Shown piece by piece: positions 15,127 through 52,302 of a stretch of 64,000 nt of DNA (positions are counted from its first letter, which is position 1; each line of letters starts with the position of its first letter). A program made the translations under genes and the position numbers. Under the pieces are notes generated by a model. It did not search any database, had not been told where the DNA came from, and saw only the letters and a list, made by a program, of their open reading frames with translations. Source of the DNA: Hyphomicrobiales bacterium (GTDB taxonomy: Bacteria > Pseudomonadota > Alphaproteobacteria > Rhizobiales > NORP267); the NCBI GenBank assembly GCA_021775855.1, contig JAJFGZ010000002.1, forward strand, positions 5,723 through 69,722, given 5' to 3'.

Positions 15127-15345
15127 TCAGTCCTGCGATTTCGTAAACAGCCGCTCGATCCTGGATATCAGGTAATCCGCAAAGGTGAGCAGCAGGAAGG
15201 ACACCAGGATCGCCGGGATGAATTTAAAGTTGGAGGCAGGGGTTCCCCTGATCTGTGTGCCGAGCAGGAGCCATATCTGATAACAGCCATAGGCCAGACC
15301 GGCCGTGATTACCAATGCGAGAATGCTGGATATGATTTTTTGCAT
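15127..15345 (-). CDS. Small two-TM membrane protein (last gene of the Rieske operon)
   Basis: 72 aa (MQKIISSILALVITAGLAYGCYQIWLLL...FIPAILVSFLLLTFADYLI). The ATG lies 2 nt after the upstream stop, and AAGGGTG is upstream. I recognise no family. Confidence 0.5.
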   Translation of the reverse strand: MQKIISSILALVITAGLAYGCYQIWLLLGTQIRGTPASNFKFIPAILVSFLLLTFADYLISRIERLFTKSQD

Positions 15346-15347
15346 GG

Positions 15348-16133
15348 CTAAAACACCCTTGCCTGTGAAACATCAACCTTGAATACGAGGATATCGTCGA
15401 GCCGCTCGATCTCGCCTTCAAGCTGAACCATAATTGCCACAAGGTCGTAAAATTCATCGGGCAGAGGACCGCCATTCTCATCGGCCAGCAAGAAGAACGA
15501 GGTCCCCTCCACTTCCCCGGTCGAGACAAAGACCGGGGGCACCCCGCCAATCAGACAAAGATTGGCGCAGGCCCGATGTGCTATCCCGGTGCCGGGACGC
15601 ATGGCGCCCCCATAGCATTTGCCGTCGCAGATCTCGCCCGACAACCGCCATCGCCCAAGGGATACCGGCGGGGCCGGGGTAAAAGCGCGCTGGAGATCCG
15701 TCAGGCCTTCGTCGGCCGGCACAAGCGCCTGTCCCCTGAGCTGGAGCATATCCATGTCGCCACGCGACAGAAAAAAGCCTGATGCATTGACAACTTGATC
15801 CCCCAGCTGAGCGGCCCGGTCCTGCAATCCAGCTTTTCCCGGCGCCGTCAGCATCAAGGTCCGTGGTTCCGGATGGCCTTCCGATGGCGCCGTTCTCAAA
15901 ACCGGGTAAGGCAGTTCTTGGACCACCCCCACAAATTGCTGCATATTGTTGCGCCCTCCGACAAAACGGCCATCACCGGGATCGCTGGTATTGCTGCCAA
16001 TCGCGAAGGACAGAGCCGCCATGCCGATAAGGATACCGAGCGTGGCCGCGAGCGAGAAGATGATCAGCGGCGCCTGGACGCGGTTAACATAGCCAACAAA
16101 AAAGGGTCGTTCCGGGGTGTGACTGGACATCAT
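15348..16133 (-). CDS. Membrane-anchored protein of unknown family with paired CxxxC motifs
   Basis: 261 aa. The start forms an ATGA overlap with the upstream gene at 16130-16133. There is one N-terminal TM helix (PLIIFSLAATLGILIGMAALSFAI). The soluble domain contains CDGKC and CANLC. Confidence 0.65.
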   Translation of the reverse strand: MMSSHTPERPFFVGYVNRVQAPLIIFSLAATLGILIGMAALSFAIGSNTSDPGDGRFVGGRNNMQQFVGVVQELPYPVLRTAPSEGHPEPRTLMLTAPGKAGLQDRAAQLGDQVVNASGFFLSRGDMDMLQLRGQALVPADEGLTDLQRAFTPAPPVSLGRWRLSGEICDGKCYGGAMRPGTGIAHRACANLCLIGGVPPVFVSTGEVEGTSFFLLADENGGPLPDEFYDLVAIMVQLEGEIERLDDILVFKVDVSQARVF

Positions 16134-17627: not shown

Positions 17628-19607
17628 TCAGACAAGGTCCGCGTCGGTAATAATCTCGACCAGCGCCGGGCCATCGTAGGCCAACGCCGCCTTCAGGGCT
17701 GGCTCAATCGCGACTGTCGCCGTGACTTTTGTTCCATGACCGCCGCACAGGCGGGCAAAAGCGGCGAATGACGGGTTGTGCAGGTTGGTTTCCCAGACCG
17801 GCCATTCACCGGCACGTTGTTCTTTCGATATTTTGCCAAGCTCTGAATTGTTGAGCAGGATGTGGGTAATGTCCATGCCGTATTTGACGGCCGTGGTGAA
17901 ATCCATCGGGTATTGACCGAAGCCGCCGTCGCCGGATATCGAGATCACCTTGCGGCCCTTATATTCGTCAAAATCCTGGGTTGCGGCCCAGGCACCCATG
18001 GCGGCTGGGAAACCGAATCCGATGGACCCCAGATATCCGGACATCAAGACCCGCTGGCCTTTTGTTTCGAAATACCGGCCGAATGAATACGTATTGTTGC
18101 CAACGTCCGCCGCGATAATTGCGTCGTCGGGACAAAGCTCACTCAGGTGCTTGAATATGGCAGCGGAATGAATCCCTTGCCCGCGTTCTTCCTGCAACCG
18201 GGAGGTTTTTTCATCGCGCCAGATGCGCCACCGTTCTACCAACTCCTTGATCTGATCGTCGGCGGCTTTTGGCAATGATAGCCGGGGCATGACCGCTTCG
18301 CAGAACGCCCCGATCTCGCCCCAGATTGGCAACTCCACGGGGTGAAACTTGCCAAGCTGCATGCGCTCGAAATCCACCTGGATGATCGGTTTCGAGCGCT
18401 CGATTCCGGTATGATTGGCGAACGACGATCCAAGCGCAATAATCAGATCCGCTTCGTTCATAAACCAACTCGCGACCGGCGTGCCGGATCGGCCCAAAAC
18501 ACCTGCGGCGTTCGGATGGGTGTCTGATATCAGCCCCTTGCCCTTGAACGTGGTCAGGACCGGAGCGCCCAGTTTCTCGGCCAATTCGATCACCGCAATC
18601 CGGGATTCAACCGCGCCGTGGCCAATGATGACGATGGGGCGCTTGGCGCTGTTGATCAATGTTGCTGCGCGGTCGAGATCGTCGGATGCCGGGATCACAA
18701 CGTGCCCACCAACCCGTCCGTCCGGGTTTCCGGCAGCGGCGGCACTCGGTTGGGTCTGGATATCGTCGGGAAAAATAAGGTGTGAGACATCGTGCTCCAG
18801 CAACGCCGTCTTGCAGGCAAGTGACATGAGTTCGGCATGATTGGAGGTGGACAGCACTGGCTGCGAGAACCGGGCAACGGCACCAAAGGCCGCGTGCAGA
18901 TCGATATCCTGGAAAGCGCCCGGACCAAATACCTGCGTTTGGACCTGGCCAGTGAGCGCCAATACCGGCGCGCGGTCGACCTTGGCGTCCCACAACCCGG
19001 TCATCAGGTTGGTGGCGCCCGGCCCGGCGATCGTCAGGCACGCCGCCGGTTTCCCGGTCAGTTTACCGTAGGCCGAGGCCGCGAAAGCCGCCGCGCCCTC
19101 GTGGCGCACGCCGATATAATCGAGCTCGTTATCGTTAGTGCGGCGGCGTATAGCATCCGACAGACCGAGGTTGGAATGCCCGACCATCCCGAAGACGCGC
19201 TTGACCCCCCAGTTGACCATGGTCTCCGCCATGACATCAGTCGTCGTTCGCTCGTGATCGGGTTCAGCCTCCAGCCCGACGAAAATTTCGCCATCACGTA
19301 TTTCGACGGGGTAGAGCTGCTGGCCAGAATCTTCATGACCGCCGGGAGGGGCACCGGTGAGCGGGTGAAAATCCCAGCCGTGCCACGGACACCGTATCCA
19401 GCATTCGCCATCAACACCGGTCTCAATCGAACCTTCGCCAAGCGGACCGCCCTGATGGGGGCAATGGTTGTTCATGGCGGCCCATTTGCCATCAAAATGC
19501 GACAGGCAGATCGATACGGTTCGTGCGGTCACGGTTTTGACCCGACCTTCCGGCAAGTCATCTTTGTGCCCGACACTTATCCATTCAATTTTCTTATCTA
19601 CCATCAT
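17628..19607 (-). CDS. N-terminal Rieske [2Fe-2S] domain fused to a thiamine-diphosphate enzyme (pyruvate oxidase/acetolactate synthase family)
   Basis: The Rieske motif CPH-x21-CPWH is encoded at 19380-19463. A TPP PYR domain follows (GVKRVFGMVGHSNLGLSDAI). The ThDP motif GDGGFGQYPMDFTTAVKYGMDITHILLNN is also present. Start is at ATG 19607 or 19604, after AGGGAAG. The track start at 19634 is a TTG. Confidence 0.85.
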   Translation of the reverse strand: MMVDKKIEWISVGHKDDLPEGRVKTVTARTVSICLSHFDGKWAAMNNHCPHQGGPLGEGSIETGVDGECWIRCPWHGWDFHPLTGAPPGGHEDSGQQLYPVEIRDGEIFVGLEAEPDHERTTTDVMAETMVNWGVKRVFGMVGHSNLGLSDAIRRRTNDNELDYIGVRHEGAAAFAASAYGKLTGKPAACLTIAGPGATNLMTGLWDAKVDRAPVLALTGQVQTQVFGPGAFQDIDLHAAFGAVARFSQPVLSTSNHAELMSLACKTALLEHDVSHLIFPDDIQTQPSAAAAGNPDGRVGGHVVIPASDDLDRAATLINSAKRPIVIIGHGAVESRIAVIELAEKLGAPVLTTFKGKGLISDTHPNAAGVLGRSGTPVASWFMNEADLIIALGSSFANHTGIERSKPIIQVDFERMQLGKFHPVELPIWGEIGAFCEAVMPRLSLPKAADDQIKELVERWRIWRDEKTSRLQEERGQGIHSAAIFKHLSELCPDDAIIAADVGNNTYSFGRYFETKGQRVLMSGYLGSIGFGFPAAMGAWAATQDFDEYKGRKVISISGDGGFGQYPMDFTTAVKYGMDITHILLNNSELGKISKEQRAGEWPVWETNLHNPSFAAFARLCGGHGTKVTATVAIEPALKAALAYDGPALVEIITDADLV

Positions 19608-19646
19608 CTTCCCTATCCCAGCATTGTCCCGCAACCAGCTACAGCT

Positions 19647-21257
19647 TTACGCGACGCCGCCGAACTGAATGCCGGACAATTCGGCCATGTCTTTTTTCCA
19701 GGTCGTCAAATCATCCGCATTGAAATTCGACAGATGATCGTGGCCGCACGCGCGCGCCATAACCTGCATCAGTTCGACGGAGGCTTCGAAAAAATTCTTG
19801 AGCTGGATTGCGGATTTTTCGACAACCAGGCGGCTGATCAGATGCGGTTTTTGCGACGCGATCCCGACCGGGCAATTATTGGTGTGGCAAGCCCGCATGG
19901 CGATGCAGCCGATCGCCTGCATCGCGGAATTGGAAACCGCGACCGCGTCGGCACCGAGCGCCATGGCCTTGATAAAATCGGCCGGTTTCCGCAACCCCCC
20001 GGTAATGACCAAGGTGATATTTCCGGGGCCATTCGTATCCAGATGCTGCCTTGCGCGGGCAAGGGCGGGGATCGTCGGCACCGATATATTGTCGCGAAAA
20101 ATAATCGGCGCCGCGCCAGTGCCACCACCGCGCCCGTCGAGGATGATGTAGTTGACACCGACCTCCAGTGCCGCGTCGATATCATTCTCGATATGCTGCG
20201 CGGATAACTTATACCCGATGGGGATACCCCCAGTGCGGTCGCGCACCTCGTCGGCAAAGTCCTTGATCTGGCTGACTTCGGTCCAGTCAGGAAAACGCGG
20301 TGGGGATATTGCGTCTTCGCCTTCGTTCAATCCGCGGACAGCAGCGATCTTGCCTTTGACCTTGGGACCCGGCAGATGCCCGCCGGTTCCGGTTTTGGCG
20401 CCCTGCCCACCCTTGAAATGGAACGCCTGGACTTTGGCCAACTTGTCCCAGTCGAACCCGAAGCGGGCAGATGCCAGTTCATAAAAATACCGGGAATTGG
20501 CCTGCTGCTCCTCGGGCAACATGCCGCCTTCGCCGGAGCAGATCCCGGTTCCTGCCAATTCGGCGCCGCGCGCCAGCGCCACCTTGGCTGGTTCCGAAAG
20601 CGCGCCGAAGCTCATGTCGGACACAAAAAGCGGGATATCGAGCTTCAGCGGTTTTTGCGCGTTGGGGCCGATCACGACATCGGTCGCGACTGCATCATTG
20701 TCTAGTAGAGGTGGAGTGGCAAGCTGTGCCGTGACGATCTGGATATCGTCCCAGTTGGGTAATTCGCCGCGTGGTACCCCCATGGCGTCGACCTTGCCGT
20801 GGTGACCGGTCTTGGATAGTCCGTCACGGGCGTATTGTTGGATCAGGCCGTTATAGGGCTCTTCCTCGGTCCCGTGGGAGGTGTCGGCGTAGAGGCCCAG
20901 ATAATCGTCGCGCTGGAACGGTTGAGGGTTTGCCTCGGCCCAGACGCCTATTTCATCTTCGTCGACGAGAATTTCACCCTTCTCGATCCACGACAAAAAT
21001 TTTGGCAACACCTCTTCATTGGCATATTCGGACACGCCGGTATCGAGGCGGTAATCCCAGTAATGCACGCCACAAATCAGGTTGTTGCCACGTACGAAAC
21101 CGTCTGACATGAGTGCACCGCGGTGCAGGCAACGTCCATAAAATACGGACACCTCTTCGTCGATCCGGACAACGACGAGGTCAACCTCGCCGACAAGCGC
21201 GTATTCCGGCTTCCGGTCTTTAAGATCATCAAATTTTGCAACTGACACTTTATTCAT
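19647..21257 (-). CDS. N-terminal Rieske [2Fe-2S] domain fused to a glutamate-synthase-type FMN/Fe-S domain (GltB domain 2-like)
   Basis: The Rieske motif CLH-x16-CGVH is encoded at 21063-21131. The GltS FMN-domain motifs are FHFKGGQGAKTGTGGHLPG and LDGRGGGTGAAP. The Cys cluster is C-x5-C-x4-C (GCIAMRACHTNNCPVGIASQ). Confidence 0.85.
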   Translation of the reverse strand: MNKVSVAKFDDLKDRKPEYALVGEVDLVVVRIDEEVSVFYGRCLHRGALMSDGFVRGNNLICGVHYWDYRLDTGVSEYANEEVLPKFLSWIEKGEILVDEDEIGVWAEANPQPFQRDDYLGLYADTSHGTEEEPYNGLIQQYARDGLSKTGHHGKVDAMGVPRGELPNWDDIQIVTAQLATPPLLDNDAVATDVVIGPNAQKPLKLDIPLFVSDMSFGALSEPAKVALARGAELAGTGICSGEGGMLPEEQQANSRYFYELASARFGFDWDKLAKVQAFHFKGGQGAKTGTGGHLPGPKVKGKIAAVRGLNEGEDAISPPRFPDWTEVSQIKDFADEVRDRTGGIPIGYKLSAQHIENDIDAALEVGVNYIILDGRGGGTGAAPIIFRDNISVPTIPALARARQHLDTNGPGNITLVITGGLRKPADFIKAMALGADAVAVSNSAMQAIGCIAMRACHTNNCPVGIASQKPHLISRLVVEKSAIQLKNFFEASVELMQVMARACGHDHLSNFNADDLTTWKKDMAELSGIQFGGVA

Positions 21258-21278: not shown

Positions 21279-22559
21279 TTATTCATTGATTAAAACTCCC
21301 ATATCCTCGACGGGAATCGTGATCAGAGGTTTTGCCGAGGATTCAACTTTCCTAGTCTCCGGGCAGTCGCCCATTAAGCGGACTTTCTCGGCGTACCATT
21401 TGGCGCCAGGTACAGCCGTCATGCCATGGAGCAAGGCGCTGATCCAAACCGCGTTGATGGCAATATTGATGACTTGGTCGGAAAACACCATCCCGATATC
21501 TTTCATGACCAGAAGCGCGAACAGGGCGGTTGCCAATCCGCGCGGGCCGAACCATCCGAAGAATAAACGGGTTACCGGAGCAGAATCGGTCTCGATCAGG
21601 GATATCCAGATCGCAACAGGGCGTACAACGAACAGACTGACCAGGATAAGCGCCAGAGTTCCGGGCGTGAGTTCCTGCAAAGCATCGGGGACAAGCGCCA
21701 AGCCAAGCAGGAAAAAAGCGCACCATGTGAGCATCTGTCCTTCGCTCTCCACAAACTCAAAAATAAACCGACACCGGCCGCGCACCATATTACCGAAGCA
21801 TAGCCCAGCGACAAAGGCAGATATAAATCCGTTGCCGCCAATCAAAGTTGCCCCGATATAGGCGATGCCGGCCAAGGCCAGCGCACCGATGCCTTCATAA
21901 ATTTCCGATGTAAATTGGCTGTCTTTAGAGATCAGCAGCAATTTTCCGCCAAGCAGGCCCACTGAGATTCCGGCGAGTGGGCCAAGCAGCAATTGTTGTG
22001 CACCAAACAAGGCCCAATCCAACGAGTCGTTGCTCATCGCCATGGCGGTCAAGCTCGCAAACAGCAGCACCGCTGGCAAGGCCAATCCGTCATTTAGACC
22101 ACTCTCGACAGTCAGCGCACGGCGGACCCGTTCGGGAACAATCGGGTTGGTTACGACCGCCTGCCCCAGCGCGGCATCAGTTGGCGCGAGAATGGCTGCG
22201 ATAAGTGCAACACCCACCAAAGGCCATCCCGGCAAAAACAGAATTGCAGCCAGGGTCCCCAATGCCACCGAGATCGGGAGCCCTATGGCGAGCATTCGCA
22301 CCGGCCATACGTGGCGCCTGCGCAGAGCATCCAGGTCGATCTGCGCGGCATCAAGGAACAGCAAGACGATCAGCGTGATCTCCGCAACCAGGTGGAGTCC
22401 CGCCTCCGCCTCCTCAGCTGGCAGAATATCCGTTAGAGAGACGAAATACCCGAGCAGGAGGAAAATCATCGGTGCCGTGACAATGGTGCTGGAAAGACGT
22501 TTCGCGATCATCGCAAAACCCAGTGTAAAAACACATAAAATTAGTATACCCAATAGCAT
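21279..22559 (-). CDS. Cation:proton antiporter (CPA1 / Na+/H+ exchanger family)
   Basis: 426-aa polytopic protein with the exchanger motif TVESGLNDGLALP. A gap of only 21 nt separates it from the downstream Rieske-GltS gene on the same strand. Confidence 0.85.
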   Translation of the reverse strand: MLLGILILCVFTLGFAMIAKRLSSTIVTAPMIFLLLGYFVSLTDILPAEEAEAGLHLVAEITLIVLLFLDAAQIDLDALRRRHVWPVRMLAIGLPISVALGTLAAILFLPGWPLVGVALIAAILAPTDAALGQAVVTNPIVPERVRRALTVESGLNDGLALPAVLLFASLTAMAMSNDSLDWALFGAQQLLLGPLAGISVGLLGGKLLLISKDSQFTSEIYEGIGALALAGIAYIGATLIGGNGFISAFVAGLCFGNMVRGRCRFIFEFVESEGQMLTWCAFFLLGLALVPDALQELTPGTLALILVSLFVVRPVAIWISLIETDSAPVTRLFFGWFGPRGLATALFALLVMKDIGMVFSDQVINIAINAVWISALLHGMTAVPGAKWYAEKVRLMGDCPETRKVESSAKPLITIPVEDMGVLINE

Positions 22560-22810: not shown

Positions 22811-23701
22811 ATGGAAATGCATCAGATACGCTATTTCCTGATGGTATCGAAGACACTCAATTTCACGCGCGCGGCTGAGCAATGTCACGTTGCCCAGCCT
22901 TCCCTGACGCGCGCCATCAAAAAACTCGAAGATGAACTTGGTGGCGAATTATTCCGCCGCGAGGGGCGCCGGACCCATTTGACCGATCTTGGCAACGCGA
23001 TGCTACCTCTGCTCACGCAGAGCTACGAATTTGCAAAAGCTGCCAAAGAACAGGCGGAAAGCCATGGCAAATCCGAGACCGGGCAATTGCGACTGGGCCT
23101 CGCCGAAGGCGTCGATATCCGCATCCTGATGCCGGCCATGAACGAAATAGGCCGCACGCTGCCAGAACTGGAATTCCAGGTCATTCGCGGGACCGCGTCG
23201 GACATCGAGAGAAGCCTGGAAGACGGTCAAATCGAAGTTGCAATAACAGCAAGTGAAGCCCAAGGCTGGGAGCGGATCAATCACTGGCTGTTATTTTCAG
23301 AAGAATTCCACGTCGCGATCAATTCGGATCACCGTTTAGCCAGCAAAAGCGAATTCAAGCTCAACGATTTTTCCGACCAGAGTGTTTTGAAATGCAAATA
23401 TTGTGAATATTCAAAAGCTTTCCCGATGCTGTTGAACGATCAGGATATTTCCACCGGGGCCATCCATGAAGTCACATCAGTCCCCGACCTTGAGATCATG
23501 CTGGCTGCAAATTTTGGGCTGGGGATCGTGCCGGAAAGTATGGAATTGGGCGAGACAGGCGTCGTGAAACTGCCGATTGAGGATGCCGGACTCAAACGTT
23601 CGCTGGAATTGCTGGCGGTTGCCGGACGGCAATATTCCAGGCCGGCGGCGCTTCTCATCGGGCTGCTGCGCGCGACAGATTGGTCGTCCCCCGAGGCGTG
23701 A
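22811..23701 (+). CDS. LysR-family transcriptional regulator
   Basis: The N-terminal HTH is MEMHQIRYFLMVSKTLNFTRAAEQCHVAQPSLTRAIKKLEDELG. It is divergent from the antiporter/Rieske operon. Confidence 0.9.
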   Translation: MEMHQIRYFLMVSKTLNFTRAAEQCHVAQPSLTRAIKKLEDELGGELFRREGRRTHLTDLGNAMLPLLTQSYEFAKAAKEQAESHGKSETGQLRLGLAEGVDIRILMPAMNEIGRTLPELEFQVIRGTASDIERSLEDGQIEVAITASEAQGWERINHWLLFSEEFHVAINSDHRLASKSEFKLNDFSDQSVLKCKYCEYSKAFPMLLNDQDISTGAIHEVTSVPDLEIMLAANFGLGIVPESMELGETGVVKLPIEDAGLKRSLELLAVAGRQYSRPAALLIGLLRATDWSSPEA

Positions 23702-23715
23702 TCCAGGTTGCTTTG

Positions 23716-25602
23716 TTATTTTCGTCGTGAGCTAGAGCCTGTATCCTCTTTTTCCTCATTCTCAACTTCTTTTGGCACGTAGTCGACGGAACCTTTTGGT
23801 GGAAAGTCAAGGGTCGACTGCAGGTCCTCGCGTTGTTGCGCCGGCATAAATGGGAAAGGCAATTCTCCAGCCTCCCGCCAGGCCTCAACCTGCGCCTCGG
23901 CAGCGGCCGTCCGGTCTTCTTCCGGGCCAGCATCGCGCGACACATAATTCATGCGAACCGGCACGGCAAGCCGGGTGCCAGCGCTTTCGATCGTCTCCAA
24001 TGTGCGCATGTAAATGTCCTCCCGGACCGCGGCATATTCGCCCCAGTCCAAAGTATCCACGTAGGCAATAAGCTGGATTTCGAGAGAACTTTCACCCAAA
24101 CCAACCAGGGTCAAACGCGGCCATTCGACCTTTGGATGGGCAAACAACATCTCTCGTAGTTTGGCCAGAACAAAGCGGAGCTGATCGGTGCTGGTATCCA
24201 GGCGAAGACCAAAATTCCCACGCAGGAGAATATATTTCATATCGCTGTAGTTGATCAGTTGGAAATCTGCGAATTGCGAGTTCGGCAACGAAATCATGTT
24301 GCCGTCCCACTGCCTGATGCGCGTCGACCGCAGACCGATCTCCTCGACATTTCCCATGACGTCCTCGAACTGGCAGAAGTCGCCGACCCGGACTGGCTTG
24401 TCGAGATACAATGTTACGCCAGCAATCAGGTTTTCGAGTGTTGGTCGCGCTGCAAGAGCGCCTGCAAGACCACCAACACCCAAACTTCCGATCACCGCTT
24501 CGATGGGCACACCCAACTGACTGGCGCCAATGGTCAGAAAAATTAAAACAGCAATCCAGGCGATCATGTTTACGGTGATCGAAATGAGGTGCCCGTCGAT
24601 CTTTCTAGGATCGATTTTTCGGGAAGCGATGATCGTCTGCGCGATCGCATTGCCCAAATTCAAAATCGCAACAGCGCCAAGCAGTTGGATAAAGATAAAA
24701 AAACTGAAGCTGGTAACCGCGTAGACAGCACCGATGAGAATGATCTGTGCTTCCAGGAGGAACAGTACGAAATAGGTCAGACCTACGCCCCCGAGAGCCA
24801 GGACAAAGCGTTGCCAATATCGATGATTCCCATCGCGGGAGCGGGAATAGCGGTGGGCACTGGTCAACGCCATTCCCCAGATCCCAACAACCAGGAAAGT
24901 GGCAAACCATTTCCACACAGCCTGATCAAGAATGGTTTTCTTGGCCCATTCAGGTAGTTGTTCGATCCAGGTGCGGTATATCATGGGACCCGGCGCAACG
25001 GAGAATAGCCTGTACAACCCTTTCATGGATCGCGGTTGGGGCGTCACGCCGGCGGTCAACGCATACAATACGCGAAGGTGGGTTATGGTCCCTGTGGAAA
25101 ACAGAAACTCGCCTTCGCGGGGGCCGCTTTCCGTTTCAGTGATTATGACGTAGGTGCCGGGAATCCGGTAAATAATCGGCCCGCCTCCCGCCGCTGCCCT
25201 CAACTCATCGACACTTGGGATATCGTCATACGCGGGTAGCACGGCGTGATCGAGAACCTCGTTCAGCAGGACCGCGGCTTCGGCCGCCAGCCTTATTGCG
25301 TCAGCGGGCGGTAATTGGCTTTCGTCCAGAGTCCGAAGACCGCGGTATTGTGCAGCAGTGCGATGGGGAGCAGGCACATCGGGAGACTCATAAAACGCGC
25401 GGTAGGCAGCTTCCATATTCTCCCGAAAGCTTTGCAATGTCGCGCGCGGGCTGGACGTATCCGGCGGCGATAAGGGACTAGGTTCATCTTCCGTCGCCAA
25501 AACTGGCGCGGAAATAACGAGTATCAGGAAAATCAGAACTGCGCGCAGCGACGAAAGCCAATTCCCGGACGTGGGCAAATATCTCCAAAAATTCCCGGAC
25601 AT
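23716..25602 (-). CDS. Mechanosensitive ion channel (MscS family) with a large N-terminal periplasmic region
   Basis: A signal-like N-terminus and several TM helices are present. The MscS beta-domain motif is PVRVGDFCQFEDVMGNVEEIGLRSTRIRQWDGNMISLPNSQF. Confidence 0.85.
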   Translation of the reverse strand: MSGNFWRYLPTSGNWLSSLRAVLIFLILVISAPVLATEDEPSPLSPPDTSSPRATLQSFRENMEAAYRAFYESPDVPAPHRTAAQYRGLRTLDESQLPPADAIRLAAEAAVLLNEVLDHAVLPAYDDIPSVDELRAAAGGGPIIYRIPGTYVIITETESGPREGEFLFSTGTITHLRVLYALTAGVTPQPRSMKGLYRLFSVAPGPMIYRTWIEQLPEWAKKTILDQAVWKWFATFLVVGIWGMALTSAHRYSRSRDGNHRYWQRFVLALGGVGLTYFVLFLLEAQIILIGAVYAVTSFSFFIFIQLLGAVAILNLGNAIAQTIIASRKIDPRKIDGHLISITVNMIAWIAVLIFLTIGASQLGVPIEAVIGSLGVGGLAGALAARPTLENLIAGVTLYLDKPVRVGDFCQFEDVMGNVEEIGLRSTRIRQWDGNMISLPNSQFADFQLINYSDMKYILLRGNFGLRLDTSTDQLRFVLAKLREMLFAHPKVEWPRLTLVGLGESSLEIQLIAYVDTLDWGEYAAVREDIYMRTLETIESAGTRLAVPVRMNYVSRDAGPEEDRTAAAEAQVEAWREAGELPFPFMPAQQREDLQSTLDFPPKGSVDYVPKEVENEEKEDTGSSSRRK

Positions 25603-25668
25603 GAATGCGCCTCCCCTTTGCGCGATACGTCTATGACCTGACTGGGTAATCTAGCATGACTTATTGCG

Positions 25669-26427
25669 TCAGGCACGCGCCGCTTTAAGCGCGGCGATAA
25701 CATCTTCAGGGGGCATGCGTTTGCGAAAATCCGGGCTTGTGAAGGCGTCCAGGACGGTCCCGTCGGAAGCGATGACATAGGTCGCCGGGATCGGCAGGAA
25801 AATACCGTGGTTGCCCTGAAATGAGGCCAGGTCGATATCGTAGGCAAGGTACGTCAGGCGGGCCTCCTCACCGATCGAGATCATCAATCCGTTGGACAGC
25901 GCGTAACCATTGTCAATATCGCAGAGCACCGGAAAGGGAAGCGTGTATTTCTCCTTGATGCCGGGTGCCGATACATTCTTCTCCGGAGTTATAGAGACGA
26001 TTTCACAGCCCAACGCCTTCACCTGATCATAAATCTCTATAAGCGATAACAATTCAAGCGCGCAATACCTGCACCAGCGCCCGCGGTTAAAACTCAAGAG
26101 CAGCGGGCCGGATGCAAGCAGGTCGCTTGAGTTGATCAGCTGTCCGTCGGTATCGGGCAAAAGAAACGGCGGTAGGACAGCTCCCTTGCCCAACGCACCC
26201 TCGCCCGCACCTCCAAGAATCAACCGCTTGACCAGTCGATCATAATCGTCGGCCAACTCTGGGTATTTGGCTTGAATTTTTTGCGTAAACGCCGCGAGCT
26301 CGCCAGAAAGCTTTTCACTCAGGCTGTGGATCGCCTCGGTATTCGGTTCAATCGTAGGCGGTCTATCAGGCATTGTAAGCCGAGCTTTAATCAGTTTCAG
26401 ACGTTCGAGTATATTGCAGAATTCCAT
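25669..26427 (-). CDS. Peroxiredoxin-like / AhpC-TSA (thioredoxin-fold) family protein
   Basis: The redoxin core contains a CxxC (FNRGRWCRYCALELLSL), and an extra helical region of about 70 aa sits at the N-terminus. Confidence 0.7.
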   Translation of the reverse strand: MEFCNILERLKLIKARLTMPDRPPTIEPNTEAIHSLSEKLSGELAAFTQKIQAKYPELADDYDRLVKRLILGGAGEGALGKGAVLPPFLLPDTDGQLINSSDLLASGPLLLSFNRGRWCRYCALELLSLIEIYDQVKALGCEIVSITPEKNVSAPGIKEKYTLPFPVLCDIDNGYALSNGLMISIGEEARLTYLAYDIDLASFQGNHGIFLPIPATYVIASDGTVLDAFTSPDFRKRMPPEDVIAALKAARA

Positions 26428-46716: not shown

Positions 46717-48111
46717 TCAGAAATGAATGGCCCGGCCATACGCGCCGAGTACACTTTCGTGCATCATCTCACTCAACGTGGGATGTGGAAAGACGGAATG
46801 CATCAATTCCTCTTCCGTTGTTTCCAGGTTCATCGCCACCACAAATCCCTGAATAAGCTCGGTCACCTCGGTGCCGACCATGTGCGCGCCCAGCAACTGT
46901 CCGGTATTTGCGTCGAATATCGTTTTGACCAGCCCATCGGCCTCCCCAAGCGCGATCGCCTTGCCGTTGGCGAGAAACGGGAATCGGCCGATTTTGACTG
47001 CAATTCCGGCTTCCTTGGCGGCTTTTTCCGTCAAACCGACAGACGCAATTTGCGGCGTGCAATAGGTGCAGCCGGGGATTTTGTCTTTCTCAACCGGGTG
47101 CGGATGCCCGCCTGCAATGGCTTCCACGCAGACAACCCCTTCGTGTTCTGCTTTGTGGGCCAGCATGGGCGGACCCGCCACATCACCGATGGCGTAGATG
47201 CCGGGAACATTTGTGCGGCCTAAATTGTCGGCAACAATGGTGCCGCGATCGGTTTTTATTTTGAGGGCTTCCAGGCCGAGGTCTTCGATATTGCCGACAA
47301 CGCCGACCGCGGCGATGACCCGGTCGACGGTCAGTTTATGGGCCTTGCCGTCCTTGTCTGTGATGTTGGCTTCCACACTGTCCTTGCCCTTTTTGAGCCC
47401 GTCGACCTTGGCGGAGGACATGATCTTGATGCCCTGTTTTTCGAACCTTTTCCGAGCGATTGCGGCGATTTCCTCATCTTCCACTGGAAGTATCTGCGGC
47501 AATAGCTCGACGACGGTTACGTCCGCGCCAAGGGTCGCGAAAAAGGAGGCAAATTCGATCCCGATCGCGCCCGATCCGATGACCAGCAAAGATTTTGGCA
47601 TTTTTTCCGGCACCATGGCTTCGAAATAGGTCCAGATCAGCTTCTTGTCCGGCTCAAGGCCGGGCAAAACGCGTGGTCGGGCGCCAGTGGCGACGATTAT
47701 ATGCTTGGCCAGAACCTCGCCCGCATCCTTGCCTGTGACCGCGATTTTACCGATAGCGGTTATTTTTGCCTCTCCGTCGATCACCTTGATTTTGTTTTTC
47801 TTCATGAGATGGCCGACGCCACCGTTTAGTTGTTTGGAGATACCACGGGAGCGCTCGACGATTTTTTTCAGGTCGAAACCGGTCTTGCCCGCCGACAGGC
47901 CGTAATCTTCCGCATGCTGTATATGGTGGTATATTTCGGCTGAGCGGAGCAACGCTTTGGTCGGGATGCAGCCCCAGTTGAGGCAAATGCCTCCAAGGTA
48001 CGCGCGCTCGATCACAACCGTCTTGAGGCCCAGTTGAGCAGCCCGGATGGCCGCCACATACCCGCCGGGACCGCCGCCGATGATAGCTACGTCGAACTGA
48101 TTTTCTGCCAT
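46717..48111 (-). CDS. lpdA: Dihydrolipoyl dehydrogenase (E3)
   Basis: The FAD motif is IIGGGPGGY, the redox disulfide is GGICLNWGCIPTK, and the C-terminal motif is HPTLSE. Confidence 0.93.
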   Translation of the reverse strand: MAENQFDVAIIGGGPGGYVAAIRAAQLGLKTVVIERAYLGGICLNWGCIPTKALLRSAEIYHHIQHAEDYGLSAGKTGFDLKKIVERSRGISKQLNGGVGHLMKKNKIKVIDGEAKITAIGKIAVTGKDAGEVLAKHIIVATGARPRVLPGLEPDKKLIWTYFEAMVPEKMPKSLLVIGSGAIGIEFASFFATLGADVTVVELLPQILPVEDEEIAAIARKRFEKQGIKIMSSAKVDGLKKGKDSVEANITDKDGKAHKLTVDRVIAAVGVVGNIEDLGLEALKIKTDRGTIVADNLGRTNVPGIYAIGDVAGPPMLAHKAEHEGVVCVEAIAGGHPHPVEKDKIPGCTYCTPQIASVGLTEKAAKEAGIAVKIGRFPFLANGKAIALGEADGLVKTIFDANTGQLLGAHMVGTEVTELIQGFVVAMNLETTEEELMHSVFPHPTLSEMMHESVLGAYGRAIHF

Positions 48112-48126
48112 GGCTCAAACTCTGCC

Positions 48127-48549
48127 TCAGGGATGGAGAATCTTGTTGTGCGACCAGCCGCCAATCGTAGTGATTGCGAGAATGGCCCACCCGAAAAATT
48201 CCGCGCCAGGCGCCGGGCCAAAACTGCGGAACCCGGCAACGACGATGACCAGTATCAGGCCAGTCCCCAAGCCGATTAAAATCGCTGCGCGGGAAGACAT
48301 CTGTCCGCGTTTGCGGTCATAAAGAAACCAGATCGGCAGCCAGATCAACAGCCCATAGACGCTTGCATATATGGGAAACACGACGACCGCCGCTCCTGTG
48401 CCAAAACCGGTCTGGCTAATCCCCATGACGCGGGTGACGAACATCAACCAGAGGAACGCCACCGCGAACCCGATGGCCGGAAACAGAATCAGGCCAACCA
48501 AATGCCGCAACACCGTGCCGCTCGGTTTTTCGCCGTGCGCGATGCTCAT
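48127..48549 (-). CDS. Four-TM membrane protein of unknown function embedded in the pdh operon
   Basis: 140 aa. The start forms an ATGA overlap with the pdhC stop at 48546-48549, and the gene ends 15 nt before the lpd start. Hydrophobic segments include LVGLILFPAIGFAVAFLWLMFV and VVVFPIYASVYGLLIWLPIWFLY. Confidence 0.6.
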   Translation of the reverse strand: MSIAHGEKPSGTVLRHLVGLILFPAIGFAVAFLWLMFVTRVMGISQTGFGTGAAVVVFPIYASVYGLLIWLPIWFLYDRKRGQMSSRAAILIGLGTGLILVIVVAGFRSFGPAPGAEFFGWAILAITTIGGWSHNKILHP

Positions 48550-49850
48550 ACGAACATCCGGACCGGCTTTTCGATAAAGCCCTTGAAGGCCGCAAGCAAT
48601 TCCGCGCCCAACGCGCCGTCGACCACCCGATGGTCGCAGGAAAGCGTCGCCGACATGATGGTCGCGACCGCAACCTCACCGTCCTTGACAACAGGGCGTG
48701 GGGTCCCTGCCCCGACCGCCAGAATGGTGCCGTGGGGCGGATTGATCACGGCGGAGAATTCGCGGATACCGAACATGCCGAGGTTGGAAACGGCGGTAGC
48801 CCCGCCCTGGTATTCGTGAGGCGCAAGTTTCTTGTTTCGGGCGCGGCCCGCAAGGTCCTTCATCTCGTTGGAGATGGTCGACAGGGTTTTTTCGTCGGCG
48901 CTGCGGATAACCGGCGTGAACAATCCATCCTCGACCGCCACGGCGACACCTACATCGGAATGCTTGTGGATCAGCCGGGCATCGTCGGTCCAGGTAGCGT
49001 TGGCCATTGGGGTCACTTTCAGCGCCATTGCGAGCGCCTTGATGACAAAGTCGTTGACCGAAACCCTGTAAGCCGGTTTGCCGTCGGTTTCAGGCGCCTG
49101 GCCATTTATGTCTTTGCGCATGGCCAACAATTTGTCGAGTTCGCACTCAATCGTGAGGTAGAAATGCGGCACCGTTTGCTTGGATTCAGTTAACCGCTCC
49201 GCGACGATCTTGCGCATTGCGTTGTGGGGGATCTCTTCGTAACTGCCATCCTCGTACATGGCCCGGATCTTGTCGCCGGACATGCTTGTGGCCATGGGGG
49301 AGCTGGCGGCAAACGGCGCAGCCTTGGCGCCACCGGATTTGAGCGCCGCTTCCACGTCGCGCTTGATGATCCGCCCCTTTGGCCCGGACCCGCTGATTGC
49401 AGCAAGGTCGAGACCCTCGGCGGCCGCGATGCGGCGCGCCAGGGGTGAGGCGAACACCCGCGCGCCGCCATTGATGGCGATGGACGGTGCGGCCAAGGGC
49501 TCGGGGGCAGCAGCAGGCGACGGCACGGCTGATGGCGCGGGTTGGTCGGGTACCGGGGAGGCCTTTGGCGCGCCAGCCGATGAAGCCTTGATCGCCGACG
49601 CGTCTTCGCCGTCTTCCAGTAAAACCGCGATCAGCTGGTTAACGGGCACATCCACCGTTCCTTCGGCGATCAGAATTTTACCAACCGTCCCTTCGTCAAT
49701 GGATTCGATCTCCATCGTCGCCTTGTCGGTCTCGATCTCGGCAATGATATCGCCGGCGCTGACGCTGTCGCCTTCCTTGACGTGCCATTTGGCAAGATTG
49801 CCCACTTCCATGGTGGGCGACAATGCTGGCATCAGGATGTCGATTGGCAT
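48546..49850 (-). CDS. pdhC: Pyruvate dehydrogenase complex dihydrolipoamide acetyltransferase (E2)
   Basis: The lipoyl domain ([15 protein letters not shown]), an Ala/Pro linker, an E3-binding domain (ASPLARRIA) and the catalytic motif CDHRVVDG are present. Confidence 0.92.
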   Translation of the reverse strand: MPIDILMPALSPTMEVGNLAKWHVKEGDSVSAGDIIAEIETDKATMEIESIDEGTVGKILIAEGTVDVPVNQLIAVLLEDGEDASAIKASSAGAPKASPVPDQPAPSAVPSPAAAPEPLAAPSIAINGGARVFASPLARRIAAAEGLDLAAISGSGPKGRIIKRDVEAALKSGGAKAAPFAASSPMATSMSGDKIRAMYEDGSYEEIPHNAMRKIVAERLTESKQTVPHFYLTIECELDKLLAMRKDINGQAPETDGKPAYRVSVNDFVIKALAMALKVTPMANATWTDDARLIHKHSDVGVAVAVEDGLFTPVIRSADEKTLSTISNEMKDLAGRARNKKLAPHEYQGGATAVSNLGMFGIREFSAVINPPHGTILAVGAGTPRPVVKDGEVAVATIMSATLSCDHRVVDGALGAELLAAFKGFIEKPVRMFV

Positions 49851-49859
49851 GCAGCCCTC

Positions 49860-51224
49860 CTAACGGTAAGAGACGGATTTCACCGCCTCGATCACTTCGG
49901 CGGTGTTTGGCAATGCTAGCTTTTCAAGATTGGCAGCGTACGGCATGGGGACATCCTTGCCGGCAACAGTTGCCGGCGGCGCGTCGAGATAATCGAAGGC
50001 TTGTTGGGTGACACGGGCGGCAATTTCGGCTGAGACGCCGCATTGGGGCCAGCCCTCCTCGACGATCACGATGCGTCCGGTTTTGCGGACCGAAGTGAGG
50101 ATCGTTTCCATATCCATCGGACGGATGGTCCTCAGATCGATCAATTCCACATCCACCCCGTCGGCGGTCAATTGCCCGGTCGCCTCGAGGGCGTAGGTCA
50201 TGGCGTGGGACCAGGCAACCAAAGTGACGTCCGCACCGGGGCGCTCGATTTTCGCCTTGCCGATGGGAACGATCCAGTCCTCGATATCCGGCACTTCAAA
50301 GGTCTGGCCGTAGAGAATCTCGTTTTCCAGAAAAATAACCGGGTTGGGATCGCGGATCGCGGATTTAAGCAAGCCCTTGGCGTCTGCAGCGCTATAGGGC
50401 GAGACGACCTTGAGGCCGGGCACATTGGCGTACCAGGGGGCGTAATCCTGACTGTGCTGCGCGCCGACCCGGGCGGCTGCTCCGTTGGCTCCACGAAACA
50501 CGATCGAACAACCCAACTGGCCGCCCGACATGTATAGGGTTTTCGCGGCCGAATTGATGATGTGATCAATCGCCTGCATGGCGAAATTGAAGGTCATGAA
50601 TTCAACAATAGGTTTTAGCCCGGAGAGCGCCGCGCCTGTCGCAAGGCCGGTAAAGCCGTGTTCGGTAATAGGTGTATCGATGACCCGCTCTGGCCCGAAT
50701 TCTTCGAGCATGCCCTGGCTGATCTTGTAGGCACCCTGGTATTCGGCCACCTCTTCGCCGATCAGGAACACATCCGCATCTGCCCGCATTTCTTCGCGCA
50801 TGGCAGCGTTCAGGGCGTCGCGGACGGTCATTTCGACCATTGCCGTGCCCTCCGGTAGATCGGCTTCCAGGGGTACTGATACATAAGCGGGCGCGGTAAC
50901 GGGCGCTTCAACGGTTTCGCCGGCAGGGGCTGGCGCGGGGTCGGGAGCCGTGACGGGTGCCGGCGCTTCCGACGCCTCCTCGCCGTCACCCAACAATTCG
51001 GCGATCGGGGCGTTGACCGGCACGTTCTCCGTGCCTTCGGCAACCAGAATCCGGCCGACTACGCCTTCATCAACCGCTTCCACTTCCATGGTCGCTTTAT
51101 CGGTTTCAATCTCAGCGATGATATCGCCAGAAGTGACGGAATCGCCCTCTTTCACCAACCATTTGGCAAGCGTGCCTTCTTCCATGGTGGGGGACAAAGC
51201 GGGCATGAGAATTTGGACAGCCAT
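49860..51224 (-). CDS. pdhB: Pyruvate dehydrogenase E1 beta subunit with N-terminal lipoyl domain
   Basis: Start is at ATG 51224 ([17 protein letters not shown]), with GGGGGA upstream, 10 nt after the pdhA stop. The lipoyl domain is followed by the transketolase-like beta subunit. Confidence 0.92.
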
Positions 51225-51234
51225 CGAATTCCCC

Positions 51235-52302
51235 CTAAACCAGGATGTCTGTCCAGAGCTCGGCCGGATCAGGTTCCGGGCCGGTCTGGGCAAATTCTGC
51301 GGCTTCGTTCACGGTCGCCCGGATCTCTTTGTCGAAATCCTTCAGTACGGCTTCATCCGCGACGCCGGCATCGACAATCCGGACCCGGCATTGCTCGATC
51401 GGGTCGTGGTGTTCGCGCATATCCTTGACTTCGTCGCGGCTCCTATATTTGGCCGGATCGGACATGGAATGGCCGCGATAGCGGTAGGTACGCATTTCGA
51501 GAATATAAGGTCCTTCGCCGTCCCGGCAATGTGCCAGAGCCCGGGCACCGGCGGCGCGCACGGCACGCACATCCATCCCGTCGACCTGTTCGCCGGGGAT
51601 GCCGTACACCGAGCCGCGATTGTAAAGCTCTTCAGATTTAGCCGCCGCACGGGTCACCGATGTACCCATGGCGTATTGGTTATTTTCGAGAACGTAGATG
51701 ACCGGCAATTTCCACAGCGCGGCCATATTGAAGCTCTCGTAGACCTGCCCCTGGTTGAGCGCGCCTTCGCCGAAATAGGTCATCGAGACTGAACCGTCGT
51801 CCCGGTATTTGTTGGCGAAAGCCAAACCAGTTCCAAGCGAGACCTGGGCGCCGACGATACCGTGGCCGCCGTAGAAATTTTTCTCCCGCGAGAACATGTG
51901 CATGGACCCGCCTTTGCCACGGGAATACCCGGTCGCCCGGCCGGTCAATTCCGCCATAACGCCTTTCGGGTCCATGTCGCAAGCGAGCATGTGGCCGTGG
52001 TCGCGGTATGATGTGATGACTTGATCGCCTTCGTTTGCGGCCATCTGCATCCCCGTCACCACTGCTTCCTGGCCGATGTAGAGGTGGCAAAATCCGCCGA
52101 TAAAGCCCATGCCGTATAGCTGCCCAGCTTTTTCCTCAAAACGGCGGATAAGCAACATGCGCTTGTAGGCGTCGATTTCTTCTTCGCTGGTAAATTCAAT
52201 AGCCGTATTCGAACCGGAGGCCGGGCGCGGAGAACTGTCTTTTTTGCTGGACTGTTTCTTACTGTTTCCGCGAGATGCCGGTTTTCTTTTTGTTGCCGCC
52301 AT
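51235..52302 (-). CDS. pdhA: Pyruvate dehydrogenase E1 alpha subunit
   Basis: [32 protein letters not shown] and the ThDP-binding region [19 protein letters not shown] are present. The N-terminal tail is basic. Confidence 0.92.

Follow-up and report, generated by a model that had tools for sequence, protein, structure and literature searches.

A Rieske-tagged glutamate-synthase-type flavoenzyme in a three-Rieske operon of a Hyphomicrobiales bacterium: a candidate component of a shared electron-transfer system

Stand-alone proteins built on the flavin mononucleotide (FMN)/Fe-S domain of glutamate synthase (GltS-like proteins) make up a very large family, hardly any member of which has an assigned function. 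Among the described members are the type 5 CISD proteins, in which a CDGSH tandem motif is fused to the glutamate synthase FMN domain and to which no function has been assigned (Lin et al. 2011, PMC3174974), and a further related architecture, a ferric-reductase domain joined to a Rieske domain (FRD+Rieske), was already listed in a survey of 2013 (Zhang et al. 2013, PMC3591440). Our study concerned a 64,000-nucleotide stretch of DNA from a Hyphomicrobiales bacterium (assembly GCA_021775855.1, contig JAJFGZ010000002.1, positions 5,723 to 69,722), hereafter the window, which encodes a Rieske [2Fe-2S] domain fused to a GltB-type FMN domain (Rieske-GltS) within an operon of three Rieske-tagged proteins. 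We infer from sequence that Rieske-GltS is not a classical glutamate synthase, but a stand-alone GltB-type FMN/[3Fe-4S] oxidoreductase whose Rieske domain would serve as a one-electron port, and the operon as a whole speaks for a common system of electron transfer and against ordinary glutamate synthesis. Full-text literature searches found no paper on the Rieske-GltS fusion, on the three-Rieske operon or on a fusion of Rieske with a PoxB-like thiamine pyrophosphate (TPP) enzyme; for related fusions they returned catalogue mentions of FRD+Rieske and CDGSH+GltS only, and one marine-transcriptome match concerned the mgs pathway. The fusion itself is abundant in databases and would not surprise a specialist, which lowers its novelty.

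The Rieske-GltS protein and its catalytic core

The gene and the parts of its product are as follows (pLDDT, predicted local distance difference test score):

19647 to 21257 (-): Rieske-GltS open reading frame (ORF), 536 aa, an unbroken frame of 536 codons with an ATG start
20928 to 21257 (-): Rieske [2Fe-2S] domain, residues 1-110, with ligands C43/H45 and C62/H65
20763 to 20927 (-): linker, residues 111-165, conserved in sequence and with a predicted pLDDT of <50
19743 to 20696 (-): GltB-type FMN TIM-barrel domain, residues 188-505 (Pfam extent), including QGAK288, R308 and GGTGAAP
19872 to 19907 (-): C451-x5-C457-x4-C462, aligning with the [3Fe-4S] Cys triad of GltB (1ea0/7mfm)

An earlier note, made from the letters of the window alone, had read this ORF as a Rieske domain fused to a GltB-type FMN domain, and Pfam bore this out by placing both domains in the one frame: residues 3-74 matched Rieske (PF00355; E 8.7e-12; 45.2 bits, cut-off 20.3) and residues 188-505 matched Glu_synthase (PF01645, 'conserved region in glutamate synthase'; E 6.6e-88), besides which there were only weak FMN_dh/IMPDH matches. 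The motifs that the note had named, namely the Rieske ligands, the GltB hallmarks and C-x5-C-x4-C, were all located where it had put them. The Rieske ligands are encoded at 21123-21131 (C43-L-H45) and 21063-21074 (C62-G-V-H65), and the whole motif, C43-L-H45-x16-C62-G-V-H65, conforms to the C-x-H...C-x-x-H pattern with its spacing of 15-17 residues; GGQGAKTGTGGHLPG (residues 283-297, 20367-20411) holds QGAK288, and LDGRGGGTGAAP (residues 373-384, 20106-20141) forms the GGTGAAP loop. The note had also allowed that the N-terminal region might belong to a separate ORF through an unnoticed frameshift. This was excluded by a word-indexed homolog search, which returned at least 8000 matches and in which the best 120 listed were all Rieske+Glu_synthase proteins of about 536 aa (120/120 carrying both domains at 535-546 aa), and equally by 80 genome loci, each of which is full-length in a single frame.

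The best solved relatives by sequence were the FMN domains of GltB and ferredoxin-dependent GltS (Fd-GltS), with 7mfm (E 3e-34) followed by 1ea0, 2vdc, 6s6s and 1llw, and a Foldseek ranking likewise placed GltS structures at the top, with the glycolate oxidase/flavocytochrome b2 family next. HMMER alignment set the Cys triad against the [3Fe-4S] cysteines of GltB, and the QGAK...IAxxR block, with Q285, K288 and R308, against the catalytic Lys/Arg block of the GltB synthase site; K288, R308 and Q285 presumably are the counterparts of K972, R992 and Q969 of Synechocystis GltS. Conservation was assessed on an alignment of 40 homologs at 38-87 % identity, the named members of which were Alphaproteobacteria, Nitrospinota, Chloroflexi and Acidimicrobiia. 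C43, H45, C62, H65, C451, C457, C462, K288, R308 and E243 were invariant in this alignment, and the residue that presumably corresponds to Q978 of GltS was His in the clade of Rieske-GltS and hydrophobic in other clades. The rest of a classical glutamate synthase is missing from the protein: Pfam found no amidotransferase (PF00310), central (PF04898) or GXGXG (PF01493) domain in Rieske-GltS, and the NCBIfam GltB model scored 130 bits against a cut-off of 1047. There was also no zf-CDGSH match in the Rieske-GltS of the window (Pfam).

When the three Rieske domains of the operon were compared, the CxH...CxxH ligand set was complete in all of them and the extra disulfide cysteines of the bc1/b6f type were absent, including from Rieske-GltS. 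The lack of these cysteines is a mark of the low-potential ferredoxin-type Rieske, and by its residues the Rieske domain of Rieske-GltS is accordingly assigned to that type. An AlphaFold2 model built on the 40-sequence alignment (mean pLDDT 80, predicted template-modelling score (pTM) 0.67) gave a confident beta-fold for the Rieske part (residues 1-110, block pLDDT 77-96), with residues 1-99 all-beta at a pLDDT of ~90, a result at the level of the domain. The TIM-barrel catalytic domain was also confident, and residues 113-163 fell below a pLDDT of 50. A linker that is conserved yet modelled with low confidence fits a mobile, tethered carrier domain, and on this model it is probably a flexible tether of roughly 50 residues.

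Spread, constraint and exchange of the carrier domain

A check of the spread of the architecture in databases, as the earlier note had proposed, showed Rieske+Glu_synthase to be very common and present in several phyla, under names such as 'glutamate synthase-related protein' and 'Rieske 2Fe-2S domain-containing protein'. Across GTDB species genomes (80 loci, L001-L080), Rieske-GltS was 81-88 % identical among alphaproteobacterial orders, in lineages comprising Rhodobacterales (Paracoccaceae), Hyphomicrobiales (Stappiaceae, Rhizobiaceae, Parvibaculaceae), Rhodospirillales and a metagenome-assembled genome (MAG) of Parasphingopyxis (Sphingomonadales). One MAG labelled Burkholderiaceae (L078) also carries a Rieske-GltS at this level of identity. 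A distant clade of the same architecture, at about 40-45 % identity, was found in Nitrospinota, Chloroflexi and Acidimicrobiia. The neighbours in the GTDB loci were identical at ~55-70 % (antiporter), 73-82 % (TPP enzyme), 51-60 % (FRD-Rieske) and 41-49 % (261-aa protein). The 81-88 % of Rieske-GltS against 41-82 % for its neighbours argues for unusually strong constraint on Rieske-GltS, recent horizontal spread being the alternative.

Relatives with other carriers were sought by an exhaustive representative search, followed by Pfam scans of the matches. The nearest relatives without a Rieske domain, P0122 and P0123, were 67-68 % identical over residues ~125-535 and carried N-terminal tandem CDGSH 2Fe-2S motifs. 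Other relatives were fused to Fer4_19+CDGSH, Fer4_19+CDGSH+Rieske, CCG+rubredoxin, a C-terminal rubrerythrin (as in P0140, which is 45 % identical) or GXGXG with two [4Fe-4S] domains, and the small carriers of the more distant relatives sat at either terminus. Of the evidence for a one-electron relay, this swapping of carriers on a single catalytic core is the strongest, and the pattern suggests that the Rieske domain acts as one of several interchangeable one-electron ports of that core. The 'dedicated one-electron relay' of the earlier note thus gained support, as the ligands are invariant across phyla and the termini are swapped among small one-electron carriers.

A different role for the Rieske domain would be that of a redox sensor, or of a structural, NirD-like docking module that regulates or oligomerizes the flavoenzyme rather than relaying electrons. 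In some NirD proteins the Rieske fold is a cluster-less structural subunit, Rieske-GltS does give a weak NirD match, and a redox-sensing ZAS anti-sigma/ECF sigma pair stands beside the operon in some genomes (see below). We nevertheless consider this role very improbable, because each of the three Rieske fusions keeps its four cluster ligands without exception and the position of the Rieske domain is interchangeable with other bona fide electron carriers.

Some homologs bear the JGI name 'methylamine---glutamate N-methyltransferase subunit C', which, with the shared family PF01645, would favour an MgsC-like FMN subunit of N-methylglutamate synthase, or a related methylamine-metabolism enzyme that exchanges amines in a redox-neutral reaction. 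Neither the operon nor the recurrent neighbours in the 80 loci included the amidotransferase-like mgsA, the GXGXG-type mgsB, gmaS or mgdABCD, and a redox-neutral enzyme needs no invariant fused Rieske cluster in addition to a [3Fe-4S] triad. For want of partner genes this assignment was rejected, and we regard it as having very little chance of being correct.

In two contexts of the distant clade (P0463, named Chloroflexi by NCBI, and P0401), a stand-alone Rieske-GltS adjoins a gene for a glucose/sorbosone dehydrogenase (GSDH, PF07995) in differing orientations (L084/L085 5529-6896 and L086 5632-6894), apart from which no informative partner gene was seen around the Chloroflexi Rieske-GltS. 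The loci of the CDGSH paralogs (two contexts) contained no Rieske-TPP or FRD partners.

The operon, its partner proteins and their conservation

Rieske-GltS lies in a single co-directional, tightly spaced run of genes, three of whose products are Rieske-tagged. This setting, which the earlier note had not described, tells more about the protein than any other evidence. The other genes of the run and the divergent regulator are (TM, transmembrane):

21279 to 22559 (-): cation/proton antiporter of the CPA1 type (Na_H_Exchanger), opening the operon and separated by 21 nt from Rieske-GltS downstream
17628 to 19634 (-): Rieske domain with a PoxB/pyruvate-oxidase-like TPP enzyme (Rieske-TPP); likely ATG at 19607, giving 659 aa
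17354 to 17674 (-): small membrane protein ahead of FRD-Rieske; start probably internal; 47 % identical to its equivalent in L010
16130 to 17188 (-): ferric-reductase/MsrQ-like di-heme cytochrome b with six TM helices, fused at its C-terminus to a Rieske domain (FRD-Rieske)
15348 to 16133 (-): orphan 261-aa protein, Cys/His-rich, with an N-terminal TM helix and two OB-like beta-barrels
15127 to 15345 (-): small membrane protein of 72 aa, last gene of the operon
22811 to 23701 (+): divergent LysR-family regulator

The gap between Rieske-GltS and Rieske-TPP is 12-39 nt, and FRD-Rieske overlaps the 261-aa gene by 4 nt. We define a three-Rieske operon by the co-location of at least two Rieske-tagged modules with conserved ligands, and the window contains such an operon. 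No GATase, GXGXG or GltD-type gene was found within ~10 kb of Rieske-GltS or among the other large window ORFs scanned, and the sole Pyr_redox protein among the scanned ORFs adjoins 2-oxoacid dehydrogenase E1-beta/E2 genes and was read as an E3 rather than as GltD. The view of the earlier note that classical glutamate synthase activity is unlikely was therefore upheld, the amidotransferase, central and GXGXG domains and GltD being absent from both the protein and its neighbourhood.

It could still be argued that a classical enzyme has been split, with the glutaminase, GXGXG and GltD-like parts elsewhere in the genome and the Rieske domain replacing a ferredoxin domain. The archaeal-type GltS is divided into separate genes in this way, and the distant relative P0207 combines GXGXG, 4Fe-4S and FMN domains. 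Across the 80 genome loci and a further 80 metagenome loci, no amidotransferase or GXGXG neighbour recurred, and Rieske-TPP, FRD-Rieske and the antiporter recurred instead. The split enzyme was rejected on the absence of its partner genes, and we give it hardly any credence.

The Rieske-TPP protein combines an N-terminal Rieske domain with a complete TPP enzyme and was 65-83 % identical over the 80 metagenome loci. It is nearest to Escherichia coli PoxB (3eya/3ey9, E 6e-71), and its scores against the NCBIfam models 'pyruvate oxidase' and 'ubiquinone-dependent pyruvate dehydrogenase' were all below the equivalog cut-offs. Its alignment stops at residue 527 of the 572 of PoxB, so that the C-terminal end, which in PoxB includes the lipid-binding C-terminus, is absent. 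Elsewhere in the window, at 46717-52302 (-), lies a 2-oxoacid (probably pyruvate) dehydrogenase set consisting of an E1-beta with a lipoyl domain, an E2 and a Pyr_redox E3-type protein; judging by these genes, a conventional pyruvate dehydrogenase complex probably exists alongside the Rieske-PoxB-like enzyme in this organism.

In FRD-Rieske, H89, H101, H171 and H184, placed as in di-heme FRD proteins, and the Rieske ligands C277, H279, C296 and H299 were invariant in 29 sequences. Six predicted helices and a basic stretch directly after the last of them suggest that the Rieske domain of this protein is cytoplasmic. The adjacent 261-aa protein belongs to an orphan family of about 2000 homologs, for which there was no Pfam or NCBIfam match and no significant structural or profile match in the PDB. 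AlphaFold2 (pLDDT 84.6) predicted its N-terminal TM helix and two barrels, and in or around a low-confidence loop the family conserves C169 at 90 % or more and C173, M178, H186, C189 and C193 without exception. The N-terminus is short and basic and has no twin-arginine motif, which suggests that the protein is periplasmic and Sec-inserted. By analogy with MsrP as the partner of MsrQ, it would then act as acceptor of the cytochrome b.

Gene neighbourhoods were compared around Rieske-GltS in the 80 genome loci, 60 of which had enough flank, and in reverse around Rieske-TPP in the 80 metagenome loci, where 29 had at least 4 kb on both sides. Around Rieske-GltS we found the antiporter in 37/60, Rieske-TPP in 38/60, FRD-Rieske in 24/60 and the 261-aa gene in 25/60 loci, with TPP or FRD in 42/60; around Rieske-TPP, Rieske-GltS was present in 21/29. 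The 261-aa gene was nearly always beside that for FRD-Rieske. The gene order differed between clades: antiporter-GltS-TPP-(small)-FRD-261 in Stappiaceae-like loci (Roseibium, Labrenzia) and the window, and antiporter-GltS-(small)-FRD-261-(small)-TPP in Rhodobacterales. An Acidimicrobiia genome has Rieske-GltS and Rieske-TPP one gene apart; the 245-aa product of the intervening gene was considered as a member of the 261-aa family and found to be unrelated. Every pairwise combination of the modules occurs, including GltS and TPP without FRD, GltS and FRD without TPP (L010, L011, L017, L029, L071), and TPP and FRD without GltS (L112, L113), the genes upstream in L113 (ComEC, LexA, DUF1194 and a B12-radical SAM enzyme) being unrelated to the operon.

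A 280-aa protein (DUF5996-like, a weak match at E 0.001) comes after the Rieske-TPP or Rieske-GltS gene in loci without the FRD-Rieske module (L003 13663-15201; L020, L021, L028, L031, L033, L049, L073, L076). It is often followed in turn by a 226-aa membrane protein with no family match; a resemblance of the latter to TrkA_C, noted by eye, was backed by neither Pfam nor NCBIfam and was dropped. These two proteins may constitute an alternative partner module.

Regulation appears to differ among genomes. A divergent extracytoplasmic function (ECF) sigma factor stands ahead of the operon in 13/80 loci (e.g. L001 7614-8539, L003, L007, L020, L028, L035, L049, L076), and eight of these 13 also show an ORF of ~100 aa for an anti-sigma factor with a zf-HC2 domain, the L001 copy of which has an HxxxCxxC (ZAS) motif. 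This pair hints at thiol or oxidative-stress control of the operon. In the window, the LysR regulator takes the place of the pair and is the probable regulator of the operon in this genome; its best NCBIfam match was GltC, at 136 bits against a cut-off of 350, and this match was set aside as evidence. A scan of 14.9-23 kb for promoters and terminators gave nothing above shuffled expectation. Beyond LysR, at 23716-26427 (-), are genes for a 628-aa mechanosensitive channel of the MscS family and for an AhpC/TSA-redoxin protein that is extended by 80 residues at its N-terminus; relatives of LysR and the redoxin were near the operon only in L063, so their presence here is probably coincidental. 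The window also contains the housekeeping genes for enolase, CTP synthase, PhaC, homoserine dehydrogenase, GlpX and RecJ.

Proposed electron flow and comparison with known systems

We would put at about even the chances of an overall picture in which a deaminating GltS-like dehydrogenase and a PoxB-like enzyme feed a membrane cytochrome through their Rieske domains. The GltS-like domain would oxidatively deaminate a glutamate-type alpha-amino acid to a 2-imino/2-oxo acid and NH3, which amounts to the second half-reaction of GltS run backwards, and the two electrons would leave FMN singly via the [3Fe-4S] cluster to the tethered Rieske domain. The Rieske-PoxB-like TPP/flavin adenine dinucleotide enzyme would oxidatively decarboxylate a 2-oxo acid, possibly the product of the first step, and load its own Rieske domain. 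The acceptor for both flavoenzymes would be the MsrQ-like di-heme cytochrome b, with its cytoplasmic Rieske domain as the point of entry, and through this cytochrome the electrons would cross the membrane to reach the 261-aa partner, or would go to quinone. The scheme would do without NAD(P)H, and the co-transcribed CPA1 antiporter may, speculatively, handle K+ or NH4+.

Several considerations argue for this direction of flow. Oxidative decarboxylation of the PoxB type is effectively irreversible, so Rieske-TPP would be an electron donor; given that donor, the occurrence of the FRD module with Rieske-TPP and without Rieske-GltS would make FRD-Rieske the acceptor, and since the GltS-like enzyme also pairs with the FRD module alone, it would by parsimony be a second donor. 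The membrane potential would favour the flow of electrons from cytoplasm to periplasm through a transmembrane di-heme, and the oxidative direction is also favoured by the relative P0140, whose fusion partner, rubrerythrin, is solely an electron acceptor. GltS is able to oxidize L-glutamate with artificial acceptors. The frequent adjacency of GltS and TPP would represent consecutive steps, from amino acid to 2-oxo acid to acid and CO2, by the same logic as taurine dehydrogenase and Xsc.

The adjacency of GltS and TPP can also be read in the reductive direction. The Rieske-PoxB-like enzyme would oxidize pyruvate, and Rieske-to-Rieske transfer would drive a GltS-like reductive amination of 2-oxoglutarate, or of another 2-oxo acid, with free NH3, independently of NAD(P)H and ferredoxin, the antiporter perhaps supplying NH4+. 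GltS with TPP is indeed the commonest pairing, often without the FRD module, and is the one retained in Acidimicrobiia; moreover, the catalytic residues for imino-acid reduction are intact, the homologous GltB domain works reductively in the cell, and GltC is the best match, though a sub-threshold one, of the divergent LysR regulator. Reductive amination does not explain the FRD module in the five loci where it accompanies GltS alone or in the two where it accompanies TPP alone, nor does it explain the rubrerythrin-fused relative, and it is further weakened by the absence of an ammonia-delivering glutaminase and by the distance of the LysR-GltC match from its cut-off. We therefore consider it unlikely, while ranking it well above the sensor, MgsC-like and split-enzyme readings.

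A number of observations nevertheless weigh against the oxidative scheme. No partner was found nearby in 10/60 of the loci centred on Rieske-GltS, and the Chloroflexi homologs stand alone. In many loci GltS and TPP are adjacent with the FRD module absent within 10 kb, and for these direct electron transfer from TPP to GltS fits equally well. Redox potentials are about -150 mV for Rieske ferredoxins and about -130 mV for glutamate/2-oxoglutarate+NH4+, which makes the GltS step nearly isopotential and the reverse direction feasible. As the residue mapped to Q978 is not conserved, the substrate need not be glutamate. Finally, the placement of the domains relative to each other in the AlphaFold2 model is uncertain, given its pTM and the low-confidence linker.

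More tentatively, and with a probability that we set clearly below that of the overall picture, the oxidative scheme may extend to a hitherto undescribed, NAD(P)H-free system in which Rieske-'plugged' cytoplasmic flavoenzymes, a GltS-like amino-acid dehydrogenase and a PoxB-like 2-oxoacid oxidase, deliver electrons singly to a Rieske-tagged MsrQ-like transmembrane cytochrome b and from there to a new family of periplasmic Cys/His/Met proteins. It could serve in metal or protein-oxidation repair, or act as a respiratory branch, under thiol-oxidation-sensing ECF sigma/ZAS control in many genomes, and it would be widespread in marine Alphaproteobacteria.

The genomic context supplies testable partners for Rieske-GltS, namely a putative PoxB-like electron donor and an MsrQ-like membrane conduit that share the same Rieske docking/relay domain. 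The conserved wiring through like Rieske tags, together with extreme conservation, amounts to a concrete, testable hypothesis for a large uncharacterised family. Rieske-GltS is abundant in marine genomes and metagenomes, and is thus likely to be of physiological importance in Roseobacter, Stappiaceae and Hoeflea-type bacteria. Were the scheme true, it would link the oxidation of central metabolites straight to the membrane or periplasm, bypassing NAD(P)H, and a function would be gained for type 5 CISD and related fusions as well.

Set against known systems, the catalytic domain of Rieske-GltS is closest to the FMN domain of GltB/Fd-GltS (PF01645; 1ea0, 1llw/1ofd, 7mfm), with a TIM barrel that is 24-29 % identical in structural alignment and with the QGAK...R block, the GGTGA(A/S)P loop and the C-x5-C-x4-C [3Fe-4S] triad in common. 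Unlike GltB, it has an N-terminal Rieske domain instead of the N-terminal nucleophile (Ntn) amidotransferase, central and GXGXG domains and the GltD/ferredoxin partner, and it has His at the residue that we presume to match Q978. With type 5 CISD it shares the catalytic domain (67-68 % in P0122/P0123) and a small N-terminal 2Fe-2S carrier, although that carrier has a Rieske fold rather than CDGSH. MgsC of MgsABC is of the same Pfam family, but has no Rieske domain, and the MgsA/MgsB partners are absent here. Flavocytochrome b2 (L-lactate:cytochrome c oxidoreductase) resembles Rieske-GltS in joining an FMN TIM barrel to an N-terminal one-electron domain on a hinge and in splitting a two-electron oxidation; it differs in its heme b5 domain, in belonging to the alpha-hydroxy-acid oxidase family and in having no [3Fe-4S] cluster. 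As for the partners, the TPP enzyme of the operon has PoxB (pyruvate:ubiquinone oxidoreductase) as its nearest relative, but with an N-terminal Rieske domain added and the C-terminal end of PoxB absent, whereas the cytochrome shares the FRD/MsrQ fold and four heme histidines with MsrQ/YedZ and adds a C-terminal Rieske domain. The partner of MsrQ is the molybdoenzyme MsrP, while that adjacent to FRD-Rieske is the orphan 261-aa protein.

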